Assembly: GCA_977017645.1 (NCBI GenBank)
Contig: OZ360255.1
Coordinates: 20,708,001 to 20,771,433 of the forward strand
Length of the DNA stretch: 63,433 bases
Direction of reading: 5' to 3'
From: Torpedo marmorata
Taxonomy: Eukaryota
The notes below the pieces were generated by a model, which searched no databases, was not told the DNA's origin, and saw only the letters and a list, made by a program, of their open reading frames with translations. Below, in pieces: positions 35,728 through 58,235 of this stretch (positions are counted from its first letter, which is position 1; every line of letters starts with the position of its first letter). The position numbers were made by a program, and so were the translations under genes.

Positions 35728-38061
35728 ATGGCCCCTGTCGGGCTGTGGGCTGCGATTGTTCTCATGAGCCAGTTCGGAAAAGTGTGTGGGGATTGCTGGC
35801 TGATTGAGGGGGAGAAAGGTTATGTTTGGCTGGCCATCTGCAGTCAGAATCAGCCTCCTTACGAGACGATACCTCAGCACATCAACAGCACTGTGCTGGA
35901 TCTCCGTCTGAATGAGAACAAGCTGAAGGTTCTCCTCTACAGTTCGCTCAGTCGTTTTGGCAACTTAACGGACCTGAACTTGACGAAAAACGAGATTAAT
36001 TACATTGAAGATGGGGCGTTTTTGGTTCAGTCGAACTTGCGTGTGTTACAGTTGGGCTACAACAAGCTGACGAACCTCACGGAGAACATGTTCCGCGGGC
36101 TAACCAGGTTGGAGTATATGTACGTCCAACACAACTTGATCGAGAGCATCTCTGTCAATAGTTTCTGGGAGTGCCCTAACCTTGTCAGTATTGACCTGTC
36201 CGCCAACAAGCTTGTGAGGCTGGAGGGCAACACCTTCACCAGCCTCAGTGGCCTTATGGTGTGCGAGCTGGCCGGCAACCCTTTCAACTGCTCCTGCGAG
36301 CTTGTTGGCTTTCTCAACTGGCTCGCCGAGTTCAACAACGTCACCAAGACCTACGACCGCCTTCAGTGTGAGAGTCCAGCAGAATATGCTGGCTACCCCC
36401 TCCTGAGTCTGAGACCCAACAGCCACCGGAACGCCATCACCCTCCTCGCTTCCTCCTGTCGGAATGGCGTGAAGATTGTTCCTTTCTCCACGCCCGTGGC
36501 TTCCAAAGATCCGGAGACCTATTCTTCGGGAATTAACCCAGCAGAATTCTCTTCCACGGAACCAATTACAACATTTACGTTGGACATTTCCAACAGCCCG
36601 ACCATCAAACTGCATCATGTGACCATCACTGGGGCCACGCTCGTGGTACAGATCCCTTCTCCTTACAGCAGAATGTATATTCTCGTCCAGTACAATAATA
36701 GTTACGTTTCTGATGTCACAAATCTACGCAATAGGAAGGAATACATAAAGTTGGAGAAACTGAAGGCCCTGACTGATTATACCTTCTGCGTGGCTTCCAT
36801 TCAGAAGTCCCAGAGGTTCAACCACACTTGCTTGACCTTTGCAACTCGAGGGCGGATGATAACTCAACCCTCCAATTCTTCCACCACCACGCATTACATC
36901 ATGACCATTCTGGGGTGTTTGTTCGGCATGGTGATCGTCCTGGGTGTGGTCTACTACTGTCTCCGGAAGCGAAGGATTCAGGAAGAAAAGCAGAAGTCCA
37001 TCAACGTTAAGAAAACCATCTTGGAGATGAGGTATGGACCTGAATCTGAGACCAGCAGCATGATACATCAGATGCAGAAGTTCCATGAGCAGCCCATCTC
37101 GGTGTCGAGGATGTCCTCTCTGCCATCGGTGCAGGGGGAGAAAGGGCAGTTCAAGCCGCTGGATATAAACGAGACCCCCAGGACCACCAAGGGTAACTAT
37201 ATTGAAGTCCGCACTGGGGAGTCCTTGGAACTCAATGAGGAGGAGGCCAAACAAGCAGACAATGGACAAGGGTCAACTGCAGAAATCTCTACCATTGCCC
37301 AAGAAGTGGACAAAGTCAATCAGATGATCAACAACTGCATTGATGCGTTGAAGTTGGATTCCGCCGCATTTATAGGCACCGATTCCGAGGTTTCCATTGA
37401 CCGTCAGATCACACCGAGCACCTCCTCCTCTCAGCTGGAGAGACCCGGCTTCCTCTCACCCACCTACAAAGAAGGGGTTTACCCACTGCAGCGTCAGAGC
37501 AGCGCGGACGCCACCAGGAAGCGTTGCAGTATCTCCTCCAGTGGCTCCGGGAAGAGCACGCGCGTCTTCAGCCTCGACCTTCCCGACCCTCCTTCCAAAG
37601 CCGAGTCAAAATACATCGAGAAGAGCACGCCGGCCCCCACCTCCTTAAAGCGTCTTCCTTCGGTGGCAGCGGGAGAAATCCACCATCTGGAGGTACAGCA
37701 AACCTACCACTGCAGTGAGCACCGCCACTCCTTCCCTGCCTTATACTGCGAAGAACACGGGGACAGTTTAAGCCAGAGGTCCGCGTTATTAAAGCCACTC
37801 TCCCGATCCAAAAGGGACTCTGTCTGCTCCCAGCTCTCTCCCAGGCACCAGTTCTCTGGATATTCTTCCAGCCCGGAGTATTCGTCGGAAAGCACTCACA
37901 AGATCTGGGAGAGGTTCCGTCCCTATAAAAAGCATCCACGGGAGGAGGTGTATATGGCCGCTGGACATGCCTTGCGGAAAAAAGTTCAGTTTGCTAAGGA
38001 TGAAGACTTACACGATATTTTAGATTATTGGAAAGGTGTATCTGCTCAACAGAAAATGTGA
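35728..38061 (+). CDS. ELFN2: Extracellular leucine-rich repeat and fibronectin type III domain-containing protein 2 (PPP1R29), 777 aa
   Basis: Signal peptide then DCWLIEGEKGYVWLAICSQNQPPYETIPQHINST, LRRs, LRRCT (NPFNCSC), FN3, TM (YIMTILGCLFGMVIVLGVVYYCL), PP1-docking KKVQF, C-terminus ILDYWKGVSAQQKM; YETIPQH, CELAGNPF and SAQQK favour ELFN2 over ELFN1; first ATG (ACAATGG) used rather than GTG 35710. Confidence 0.95.
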   Translation: MAPVGLWAAIVLMSQFGKVCGDCWLIEGEKGYVWLAICSQNQPPYETIPQHINSTVLDLRLNENKLKVLLYSSLSRFGNLTDLNLTKNEINYIEDGAFLVQSNLRVLQLGYNKLTNLTENMFRGLTRLEYMYVQHNLIESISVNSFWECPNLVSIDLSANKLVRLEGNTFTSLSGLMVCELAGNPFNCSCELVGFLNWLAEFNNVTKTYDRLQCESPAEYAGYPLLSLRPNSHRNAITLLASSCRNGVKIVPFSTPVASKDPETYSSGINPAEFSSTEPITTFTLDISNSPTIKLHHVTITGATLVVQIPSPYSRMYILVQYNNSYVSDVTNLRNRKEYIKLEKLKALTDYTFCVASIQKSQRFNHTCLTFATRGRMITQPSNSSTTTHYIMTILGCLFGMVIVLGVVYYCLRKRRIQEEKQKSINVKKTILEMRYGPESETSSMIHQMQKFHEQPISVSRMSSLPSVQGEKGQFKPLDINETPRTTKGNYIEVRTGESLELNEEEAKQADNGQGSTAEISTIAQEVDKVNQMINNCIDALKLDSAAFIGTDSEVSIDRQITPSTSSSQLERPGFLSPTYKEGVYPLQRQSSADATRKRCSISSSGSGKSTRVFSLDLPDPPSKAESKYIEKSTPAPTSLKRLPSVAAGEIHHLEVQQTYHCSEHRHSFPALYCEEHGDSLSQRSALLKPLSRSKRDSVCSQLSPRHQFSGYSSSPEYSSESTHKIWERFRPYKKHPREEVYMAAGHALRKKVQFAKDEDLHDILDYWKGVSAQQKM

Positions 38062-45400: not shown

Positions 45401-45931
45401 CCCTTGACACCCCAATCAATGCTGCAAAAACCATCTGCATAAAAACACCTCTCGTATAACATGGGCCCAAAAGTGCAGTCAGCAGCCTGACCTGATGTGG
45501 CAGGTTCTCCACATCTTTGCTGACAAAGAAGCAAAGAAATGAAACAGGAAATTAGGATTTGCCTACCAAGAGTGAGAATGATAAATTTGAGACCTTTATT
45601 TTTCATTCATTTCTGCCAAAGGTGAATTATGCTCCATAATTTGTCTTTGTGGCAGAAGTACACTGGCTACTGTCTGTGTCTGACCTGTCCATTGCTGTTC
45701 CTGTTTGAGAAGCCCCTTTGGCACCGTCTCCCAAACCATTGAACTCATTCACGGTTTTATTTTCCACTCATCAAGCTGGCCCCAAAGGTCAGAGTTCATT
45801 CCACTGCTGCGATCAAAGTGTCGCTCTCCAGAGCTCCTATCTCAGCCACTTCAAACTCAGACGACAAGTTCCTTCTCCCCTACCCCGACAATAATGCATC
45901 GACCCCACCCTCTGAAGTGGATTGCTAACCC

Positions 45932-46283
45932 TCAGCCTTCTCGCCCACTGGTCTCGAGCTGAATCTGACTCCAGCTTATAAATATGTATAATTTCTGGTA
46001 GAGTGTTTGCACATTTTCAGTGACATTACTGTATGCCTTTAAATCCTGGATCAAGACGTTACTGTTTTTCAAATGGTCTTGTACTTCTCCTGTTCCTGCC
46101 ACCTCTTGATTGGTCCTCTGTAGCTTTTCCATCTCACAGAGTTCCACATGCTGCAACAAATGTAGAATGATGTTTGGGATCTTCCCCCAGGCTGGATAAT
46201 GTCTCTTCAGCAACACCAGAAATGGATCCATGGTAATCCGAAGTCCATTCTTAATGATGTTTTTAACTTTGGTCTTGTTCCAG
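45932..46283 (-). CDS. Putative terminal coding exon or small ORF of an unidentified helical protein
   Basis: T-rich acceptor ...TTTAG|C at 46284; 116 open codons in non-repeat DNA; ACCATGG at 46231; AATAAA at 45595-45600 (minus); no confirmed homology. Confidence 0.4.
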
Positions 46284-47471
46284 CTAAATTTATGCACCAA
46301 AAAAAAAAAACTATTGCAAAAGTAATCAAAATGTGAATTTTGTAATACAAAAAAAAAAGAGAAATGGTTCCGGGTAGGACGGGAGAAAGGGGGATTACAA
46401 GAAAACCAGAATTCCCCTCCCACCCACCGCCAACAGTGATCCGTTTATTGCATGGTGTAATGTATTTTCAGAACAGATTATCGTTGTGTACGTGACTGTT
46501 TGTCAACTTTGTTTATCGTGACAGACTGCTTTCCACAGTCCTGCTTGGAGCTGAGCAGAAAACAGGGATGGAGAAGAGAGAAAAATAACAGCCTTGTTAA
46601 AGTCCGGAGCAAATCAACTTGGCCCTGGTCCCCGGCTCAGTTGCCAGTGCGGCAAGTTATCCTCTGGTTGGGTTTGGAGAACAAGGGTTCATCCCCGCTT
46701 CTTTTAATTTTGGACACCTTCTAAACCATTTTGTTAATCTCCCTGCCAGTTAGCTGGTGGTTATAGCCATGGCAGTGTCTGGTCTTGACAAGGGGCGACC
46801 TGCTCGCTAGGGGAAGGAGGGTTTGGTTGAAGTTGTGAGCAGTTGGTTTGGACCCAGAATGGAATATTCCTTCTCTAAAGAGGCCAGTGAAAATAATACT
46901 CAACATGCCAGAATCTGCTCCTCAAACCTGACACTTCTTTATGGAGTTGAAGCCACTTTATGTATCCTTACTTCATCTCTCCCAAACCAGCAGTTGGAGA
47001 TGTATTATAACGGTCAGAGTAAATGTAGCATCAGCTTATCGATTAAGTGCTTGATTTTTTTTTCTTTCCAGTAGGACAGCTTAAACAATTGGCCTCATTG
47101 AAATTTAAATATTCAAGTGCACACAATTCCAGTGATCATGTTTTCAGTTTGAAACATCCTGGCTGTCGATTGTTGGCCTTTGCCTTCACACAACCAGAGG
47201 AGAAGGATTTGATTTTCTGCCCTCTTTGCTTTAAATTTACAACCCGAGTGAACTCTTGCTTCTGTGTTTCTCATTCGTCGGGAAGCAGACACACTCCACC
47301 TTCCCAGTCATCCTTTCATCTTGTGGGAACATCGAGCTGCCTTGTCAGGGGAAGTCTTGCCTTTCCATCTGGTCAAGATTCCTGACAATCAGAATTTGTT
47401 TTCCCCTGTTCAGCCACGGGCTGCGATGCAGGTGCCAGGGTCAAATTCATTGCCCCTCAACTGAGTGAGCT

Positions 47472-50336: not shown

Positions 50337-50685
50337 TAAAATGAATCCATGTGAAGTGCACAGTTCCAATTTTTTTTTTGATTCGATAGTTAAGATGGTT
50401 ATACAATGTAACGTGGGTGGATCTGGAATGAACACTACCCACAAAATTTAGAACAAAACTAATGCTGAGTGGCCCACCCACATGCACAAAGGAGGATTTG
50501 AGGTCTGGGCCTGTACAGCCATGATTGCATTGAAGGTGGAATAGTCTCAAGGGGATGAGTGGCCTACTCTTGCTCCTGTTTTCTTGAGTTTTTGTGCTTT
50601 CAACTTCAGACATCTCACTTTATCATGGATCGCCCGAACTCCATGCCAAAATTTTACCTTCTGTTAAATGTCTAAATTTTAAATT

Positions 50686-50949: not shown

Positions 50950-52050
50950 AATTGAACATACAACAGAGAACGGTGCAGCACAATGTTGTGCCGACCTATA
51001 CAGTATAAACCTATTCCACCATCGATCTAATGCTTCCCTCCCTCACACCCATAACCTTCTATTTTTCTTACATCCATGTGCCTATCAGAAGCCCCTTTCA
51101 CACTGCCAAATAACATGGGTTGAACCGGGCAACTTAGTGGGTATTTAGCAGGTCACCTGGCAGTGTGAATGGTCCCAACCGGGAAGGGGGAGGTAAAAAT
51201 CAACCGGGCTCTGATACTTGGTAGGGGTTTGTATCAGAACCCGGCCGAGTTGACTCGGAATTGACTTGACTGCAATGTGAACGGCCAACCGGCTCTACTG
51301 GGTACCATTAGTGAGGTCAGTGCCTGTGTGCATGCATTAGTCTGGTAGTTTTAATATCAGTGCAGTTATATTTCACAGCGTGGCCGGCGGGGCTGTCAGC
51401 GCGCGGCCGGTGGAGCTGTCACAGAGCGGCCGGTGGAGCTGTTTGTGCGTACCTGTGCTTTAAATCATCTCAAGATTACTTATAATACCTAATACAATGT
51501 AAATGCTAGGTTGTTCTTCTTTACCCAGTCTGATCACAGAACGAGCATTAGTGCTCAGCCCAATGTCCTCTCAGTTCCCAAGTTTGAACAGTCTGAAGCC
51601 CACTGCAGTAGATTTTCCCACGGTCTTTTATACATTGAGCGCTTATGTGCTTTATTCCCGCTACGATTTCACTGCCCTGCGAGTACGTGATACGTCACTC
51701 GGGACGTCACCACTGGAGGTTGGGCCCCCCTTAGATTCGCGATATCCACATGAACCGGGTAATTCATGGTCCAGTGTGAACGGCTCACTGGGTACTGCAA
51801 CCTGGATCGTTTACTCGCCTATTTAGTGGGTTGCCAGAGTGAAAGGGGCTGTCTTCTGAATGTCCCTATTGTACCAGCCTCCACCACCTCCCCCCAGCAA
51901 TGCATTCCAGGCACCCACCGCTCTCTGAGTTTAAAAAACCTACCTCTGACGTCTCCCCTAAACTTTCCTCCACTTACCTTAAACATATTGGCCCTGGAAA
52001 ATAGGTGCTGGCTGTCCACCCTATCTATGCCTCTCATAATCTTATGCACT
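50950..52050 (-). mobile_element. CR1 3' fragment split by a DNA element
   Basis: Parts 50950-51089 and 51851-52050 (KIMRGIDRVDSQHLF, GKFRGDVRG). Confidence 0.7.
51090..51850. mobile_element. Non-autonomous TIR element, probably PIF/Harbinger-like
   Basis: TIR AGCCCCTTTCAC(A/T)CTG; subterminal CAGTGTGAA repeats; internal 3x GGCCGG(C/T)GG(G/A)GCTGT; no clear TSD. Confidence 0.6.
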
Positions 52051-57490: not shown

Positions 57491-57954
57491 TTGAAGGGGA
57501 GCCGTGAATTCTAAGGGGAGCCTGATCAACAGAAGTGGACAAATAGCAGGTGCTGATGGGGTGTGGTGAACGAGGGTGGGAAGAAACTCAAGTAGACCTG
57601 ATGAATAAATGGTCTCTTTCTGTGCTGTACATATTTGTTTTACGTTTTGATTTAAGATTCCTGTTTCTACATATTCGTTCGCTGGGGCTCCACAAGTAAA
57701 GATGCAGGTCGTGCCACCTCGCTGGGATTCTGCTGTCCCAAACTTCTATCCATTGACTTCATAAATCCTGACGAGTATCTCTGGCCCATGATGAAAGCCT
57801 GCCACTTGCTGTGCACCTTCGATGCTACCCTTTTATTCCAGGTCTTATGCATTTCTAAACACTCTTTTAACTTCTTGCTAAAATTTTGTACATTAGTCTC
57901 TGATTTGCTACTGAATTTGGAAACAGGATTTTCTCTTGTTCCGTTATTTTTAAT

Positions 57955-58235
57955 TTGAACAGTACAGGCCCTTTGGCCCTCGACGTTGTGCCGACCCATA
58001 TATTCCTTAAATAAAATATACTAAGCCCTCCCTACCCCATAACCCTCTATTTTTCTTCCATCCATGTGCCTGTCTAAGAGTCTTTTAAATGCCCCTAATG
58101 TTTCAGCCTCCACCACCATCCCTGGCAAGGCATTCCAGGCACCCACAACTCTGTGTAAAAAAACGGACCCCCTGATATCTCCCCTAAACTTCCCTCCCTT
58201 TACTTTGTACAGATGTCCTCTGGTGTTTGCTATGT
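57955..58235 (-). mobile_element. CR1 3' fragment
   Basis: TRGHLYKVKGGKFRGDIRG...RVVGAWNALP. Confidence 0.85.

Follow-up and report, generated by a model that had tools for sequence, protein, structure and literature searches.

Is the stop-free frame that faces the tail of an ELFN2-like gene on the minus strand of the Torpedo marmorata genome the last exon of a gene and, if so, of what kind of gene? In a sequence-only reading of the 63,433-nt stretch analysed here (hereafter the window, part of contig OZ360255.1, our contig C78), the frame was proposed to encode helices B-D of a long-chain four-helix cytokine resembling IL-6 or, alternatively, a standalone protein of 99 residues. The two proposals differ in what the product would do and in where the gene would begin, and they are examined below together with the possibilities that the frame arose by chance or is a remnant.

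Genomic setting

The plus-strand coding exon that lies tail to tail with the candidate is presumably ELFN2; the name follows the sequence-only reading, and the Fringe and galectin genes elsewhere on this contig fit it. The contig carries genes for a Hormone_1 protein (13.06 Mb), a Sec7-domain protein (18.48 Mb), a galectin (18.62 Mb), a Fringe protein (22.0 Mb) and a CARD protein (22.24 Mb), a set which we take to fit human 22q13 with changes in local order. As regards the tail-to-tail arrangement of CYTH4 and ELFN2 in mammals, which had been brought in for comparison, a Sec7-domain gene, at most a possible CYTH4, is indeed found on this contig; since it is 2.3 Mb away, the ray apparently does not share the gene order of mammals at this place. 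Elsewhere in the genome a Sec7-domain piece occurs in about 25 near-identical copies on many small contigs and on contig C53, many of them paired and with stops, which suggests that this piece was captured and spread by a repeat. In the literature, elfn2 is listed beside LGALS1/2 in Table 1 of PMC10343441, and no paper on a gene next to ELFN2 in cartilaginous fishes was listed by the literature searches.

The DNA beyond the window looks poor in genes. In the next 560 kb, the 290 frames examined out of 558 contained transposon domains and one NDUFB10 relic, a decayed minus-strand piece (L066:4513-4728; Pfam E 6.6e-14) with few genes around it and probably a pseudogene. A leucine-rich-repeat relic, also on the minus strand (L005:5757-6356), lies some 16 kb beyond the end of the window; it is frameshifted, G+C-rich and spread across three frames, and is here called LINGO-like, the LRR_8 match having an E of 0.035. 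Within the window, positions 61389-61901 hold a tandem repeat with a 30-nt unit, which has several open frames on either strand, no Pfam match and a strong minus-strand acceptor before it at 61957. Positions 51088-51849 form an element that has no local copy and in which, by eye, inverted repeats seem to mark the termini (around 51845 and 51092), with a TATA-like site inside it at 51632.

Signals around the candidate exon

The features of the locus are collected in Table 1. Direct reading of the minus strand recovered what the sequence-only reading had described, namely the TTTAG acceptor, the 116 open codons and their stop, the AATAAA about 330 nt further on, the ACCATGG context and the quoted peptide, with the additions that two T runs rather than one precede the acceptor (a T12 at 46310-46299 and, near 46359-46349, one of about T11) and that a nearer AATAAA is present. 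The location in non-repeat DNA was likewise borne out, the frame being outside any local self-repeat and single-copy in the 6.2-Gb genome by DNA, whole-protein and half-protein searches.

Table 1. Features of the candidate locus and its surroundings (window coordinates)
Feature	Position	Strand	Remarks
ELFN2-like coding exon	35728..38061	plus	tail to tail with the candidate
Second AATAAA	45595..45600	minus	332 nt 3' of the stop
First AATAAA	45756..45761	minus	171 nt 3' of the stop
Candidate terminal coding exon	45932..46283	minus	116 codons and TGA, after a single base that completes a phase-2 codon
Internal ATG	46229..46231	minus	ACCATGG context; 99-aa product
Intron 3' end	46284..46359	minus	two poly-T runs; AG at 46285-46284
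Alternative AG	46312-46311	minus	same phase
Strong competing acceptor	46550..46590	minus	score 7.7; then short open frames only
Candidate start and donor	46966..46976	minus	putative; ATG 46976-46974, two bases, GTAAGG; phase 2

The first exon base is 46283 and the acceptor is in phase 2. With a simple splice weight matrix, built on generic frequencies, the acceptor at 46284 has a moderate score of 2.1, within the top 14% of AGs under the first matrix; the same-phase alternative at 46310 reaches 3.4, and a phase-0 AG at 46275-46274 scores -3.6.

Coding character of the frame

The length of the frame alone is within chance expectation: in 30,342 unique bases, 6.45 stop-free frames of at least 116 codons were expected and 9 were seen, the corresponding values for at least 170 codons being 0.4 and 4. 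Nor is the amphipathicity of the peptide greater than its composition gives (residue shuffle p=0.10), a value close to that of a true LIF-like exon of the same genome (0.09). The make-up in residues and codons, by contrast, exceeds most of the nulls applied. Proline, serine, cysteine, arginine and glycine together account for 16.4% of the peptide, as against 31.8 +/- 4.4% in simulated stop-free frames, a content as low as this being obtained in 1 of 3000 simulated frames and in none of 2000 base-shuffled versions (p=0.005 for the true LIF-like exon), by a measure that was picked only once the peptide had been seen.

The codon statistics point in the same direction. The composition-free codon z was 3.5-3.9, ranking first among the 99 stop-free frames of nearby unique DNA and falling within the range of 16 real cytokine and hormone exons (1.9-5.1); the runners-up reached 3.48 and 3.29 and the null had a mean of 1.17 and a standard deviation of 1.10, so that the top z is about the expected best of 99. 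Under a codon model trained on 955 cytokine and hormone codons, the exon obtained +12.7 bits, inside the range of left-out controls (-9.5 to +19.5 bits), and the stretch of 54 codons that continues the frame upstream of the acceptor obtained -17.5 bits; the coding signal therefore begins at the acceptor. In the first 100 kb, the best coding-like segment so defined is the third, after two frames of the LINGO-like relic. A generic amino-acid odds score was flat (0.7 bits). A second codon model, from GPCR and filament genes, gave the frame -19 bits (rank 39 of 195) and the LIF-like control -64; it was discarded as a coding test, being dominated by G+C content and scoring true cytokine exons negatively.

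The coincidence of signals was also counted. Among the 94 runs of T10 or longer in 2.33 Mb, four lead to an AG followed by 100 or more open codons; two of these belong to the candidate exon and, among the remaining 92 runs, only two show the pattern, one of them being a real filament-gene exon. AGs sampled in low-copy DNA precede 116 or more open codons in 155 of 1128 cases, a proportion which is probably inflated by low-copy transposon frames. The terminal coding exon of the sequence-only reading is reasonably supported by the codon statistics and by the boundary at the acceptor. On these grounds a coding origin of the frame is considered likely; that it is part of a working gene is, by judgement and not by computation, held to be a little more probable than its contrary.

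Searches for relatives

No relative of the peptide was found in Pfam, where the E values of 0.04-0.4 represent noise only, in a PDB sequence search, in 5.8 billion proteins of 63-203 and 204-2000 residues, in 1.84 billion representatives searched without a word filter, or in the ESM Atlas, where recognition was 1687 as against the 2300 reached by most known families. Viral contigs, phages, Rfam and a PF01697 search gave no match either, and an exact look-up of the 99-aa product was negative in a collection from which the ELFN2 of the window is absent as well, so that this genome is not represented there. A metagenome match (L036; 41% over 54 residues) was rejected as a chance hit, found via its seed word, to the linker of a bacterial multicopper protein. 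The reach of these searches can be gauged from the LIF-like control, for which the same protein search returned one relative among four candidates, an 80%-identical Narcine protein (P0001). It follows that the word search is weak for fast-evolving cytokine genes, and also that a conserved, annotated orthologue of the candidate, if present in that ray at a similar identity, should have appeared.

The single-sequence AlphaFold model of the peptide predicts helices at residues 3-28, 36-61, 65-85 and 89-115 with low confidence (pLDDT 43, pTM 0.25), the LIF-like control giving three long helices with pLDDT 50 and pTM 0.39. Fold searches with the query returned generic matches, with no cytokine among those listed; with the control, LIF appeared at rank 10 with an E of 2.0, which means that the true control, from a family with an up-up-down-down four-helix bundle and long AB and CD loops, was not recognised as a cytokine either.

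Comparison with helical cytokines and other helical families

If the frame were the last exon of a highly diverged four-helix cytokine, it would carry helices B-D or B-E, its short upstream exons would have escaped recognition, and the secreted product would act on a receptor of the gp130 family or of class II. The peptide is all-helical and of the right size, the exon scores like real cytokine exons under the cytokine codon model, and fast-evolving cytokines are elusive, as seen with the LIF-like control, for which a single relative was found and the fold was not recognised. The optimal alignment to the terminal exon of the ray's own LIF-like gene is collinear over three helices, yet its score is 7 (p=0.90). 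Furthermore, the genome searches disclosed no convincing IL-11, CNTF, PRF family or G-CSF gene. According to PMC6238376, cartilaginous fishes possess three copies of gp130, a clade of G-CSF receptors and also CNTF; the genome search, a loose first pass with ten profiles (IL6, IL11, LIF_OSM, CNTF, PRF, GCSF, Interferon, IL12, IL10 and Hormone_1), also missed CNTF.

Nevertheless, the comparisons with the genome's own cytokines go against this explanation. The LIF-like, IL-6 and interferon exons of the ray do match Pfam (LIF_OSM E 4e-5, IL6 7e-6, Interferon 2e-11) and, in the LIF case, human LIF in the PDB (1.6e-7), whereas the candidate matches neither collection, and the locus is absent from the genome matches of all ten profiles. 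The acceptor is in phase 2, while all eight readable LIF, IL-6 and interferon acceptors are in phase 0, in agreement with the objection that had been raised at the outset. The 800 nt past the stop contain one ATTTA, compared with 3-15 in eight of eight immune-cytokine loci; the 3' flank of the Hormone_1 locus contains none. A signal-peptide or helix-A exon upstream is typical of the IL-6 family, the signal being absent in CNTF and CT-1, and none stands out upstream of the candidate between 46.3 and 100 kb, where short exons would be within the noise. Pairwise shuffle tests of the peptide gave p values of 0.49-0.67 with the ray's own IL-6 exons, 0.90 with the LIF-like exon and 0.54 with Narcine P0001. 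A likeness to helix D of IL-12p35 was dismissed by the same test (p=0.32), and any resemblance to IL-11, CNTF, IL-27p28 or G-CSF is presumed. Thus the proposal of IL-6-family helices B-D found no support in any comparison, be it with profiles, the PDB, own-genome exons, intron phase or AU-rich elements.

The individual likenesses deserve comment. The LIF/OSM (M17)-like gene on contig C11 (L034) shares with the candidate a terminal exon with several long helices and similar codon and residue biases, but it differs in its phase 0, its 151 residues, its cysteines, a long loop, five ATTTA motifs and its Pfam and human LIF matches. The IL-6 genes show amphipathic helices and a short I-x-x-G-hydrophobic likeness; unlike the candidate, they have separate phase-0 exons and the helix-B cysteine. 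At least two such genes form one cluster on contig C5 (133.9-134.15 Mb; L025-L028), in line with the IL-6 duplication reported in PMC6238376. Seven or so intron-containing type I interferon genes are clustered on contig C61 (45.95-46.07 Mb; L091-L101), and by eye those at L091-L096 offer an AW motif and a leucine-rich helix in the same register, with a fit to helices B-E; the candidate, however, lacks the CAW motif and is in phase 2, and the likeness was rejected (profile p=0.41, hhalign probability 0.3%, best of six pairwise p=0.055).

Outside the cytokines, the middle of the candidate looks by eye like a CARD, one of the death folds of six short helices, with no Pfam or PDB match to either CARD or DED, and a profile from 19 CARD domains of the same genome gave p=0.13, on which the likeness was set aside. 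From the internal ATG (46208-46231, minus), eight residues agree exactly with the N-terminus of human FADD (sequence as given in PMC9020135 and PMC12701987); the likeness ends there, the best DED match in the genome starts differently, and the agreement was judged a coincidence. BORCS8 and BLOC1S1 subunits, the best look-alikes in the ESM Atlas (0.81-0.82), are of similar size, helical and intracellular, but they are conserved families without an HMM match here, and a third of shuffled proteins reach the same score. The motif and spacing match to IL-6 that had first drawn attention is therefore not diagnostic: interferon and CARD can be fitted by eye equally well and both fail shuffling, so that pattern matching of amphipathic helices cannot discriminate in this case.

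No family is assigned to the peptide, and the IL-6 label should be dropped unless orthologues or cDNA bear it out. A diverged helical cytokine of some kind is, in our estimation, rather unlikely. Slightly more doubtful still is its most specific form, an unseen long-chain helical cytokine of rays, beyond the reach of profiles, with an atypical phase-2 intron and on a chromosome matching human 22q13, which might be a genome-duplication sister of IL-11, IL-27p28 or cardiotrophin lost in bony vertebrates or else a ligand of one of the extra gp130 copies or of the G-CSF receptor in cartilaginous fishes.

Gene model

Our tentative reading, which we would call possible rather than probable, is that the single-copy, coding-like frame forms most of a small gene, missed by annotation, for an all-helical intracellular binding protein of about 118 residues and not for a secreted cytokine. 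In the model proposed, a short first exon would end with the ATG and two further bases at 46972, from where splicing over a 688-nt intron would lead to 46283. The two exons would yield a product with no signal peptide and one cysteine, predicted to form four helices of 20-27 residues with short links between them, and one of the two AATAAA signals, at 45761 or at 45600, would set the end of the mRNA. Such a protein would presumably not leave the cell and would work through contacts with other proteins, a role guessed from its anatomy, and the gene would be small and either young or fast-evolving.

The donor (score 3.5), the nearest upstream to reach a score of 3, agrees with the acceptor in phase and has an in-frame ATG just before it. 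Since in-frame ATGs of this kind occur by chance at 48 of 751 donors (6.4%), with a second case at 50619, and the stronger acceptor at 46550 falls inside the proposed intron, the two-exon model is a lead and not a result. The standalone 99-aa protein starting at 46231 is a possibility, but the 17 codons before this ATG lie within the best coding-like segment, which favours a start further upstream. Between 46.3 and 100 kb, neither splice and codon scores nor signal-peptide and Pfam searches single out an exon on the minus strand, short exons being within the noise. Only four ATG frames with a hydrophobic start were found in the 54 kb upstream, none convincing as a signal peptide, and Pfam gave only weak rows on 142 upstream minus-strand frames (140 of the 167 listed plus two spanning a tandem repeat). 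Among these, Lipocalin_7 at 57670-58020 (E 0.007) was discarded as an upstream exon, one such row being expected in 142 tests, and an 87-nt phase 2-2 candidate exon at 49368-49282, with good splice sites, was discarded for want of a coding signal.

Two further explanations dispense with a working gene. The frame might be a chance opening in intergenic DNA, with poly-T, ATG context and AATAAA as independent accidents, for which speak its unexceptional length, the lack of a relative in any protein, structure, metagenome or viral search, a codon z near the best expected of 99 frames, an acceptor of moderate rank and the frequency with which sampled AGs precede frames of this length, inflated as that frequency probably is. 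Against it stand the residue make-up under both nulls, a coding-like segment that starts at the acceptor and the rarity of a T run, an AG and a long frame in succession, and we regard a chance frame as fairly unlikely, on a par with the diverged cytokine. Alternatively, the frame might be the relic of a once-coding piece (a pseudogene, a captured exon, a low-copy mobile element or a viral gene) that landed here and whose frame has so far stayed open. The gene-poor 600 kb beyond the window, with its frameshifted LINGO-like and decayed NDUFB10 pieces, would suit such an origin, as would two identical 12-nt direct repeats, at 46989-46978 and 45738-45727, between which lie the candidate ATG, the open frame and the nearer AATAAA, the second repeat following 17 nt after that signal. 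However, no poly(A) precedes the second repeat, and 3.4 kb of sequence is estimated to contain about one exact 12-mer by chance; searches of the genome by DNA and by protein revealed neither a parent nor another copy of the frame. The match to a transposon protein that had been named as evidence against a gene was looked for and not found, Transposase_28 (E 0.18) being noise, and there was no viral match. A relic is accordingly judged the least likely of the explanations considered, and the small intracellular helical protein is retained as our preferred, if tentative, reading.

Biological meaning

The candidate is probably coding. Should it encode a small orphan helical protein, it would represent another lineage-restricted gene overlooked by homology-based annotation, which is useful and unsurprising. 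According to PMC6238376, several helical cytokines that cartilaginous fishes had initially been said to lack were later found in them. If the candidate were a cytokine after all, it would bear on the question of which helical cytokines the ancestor of jawed vertebrates possessed.
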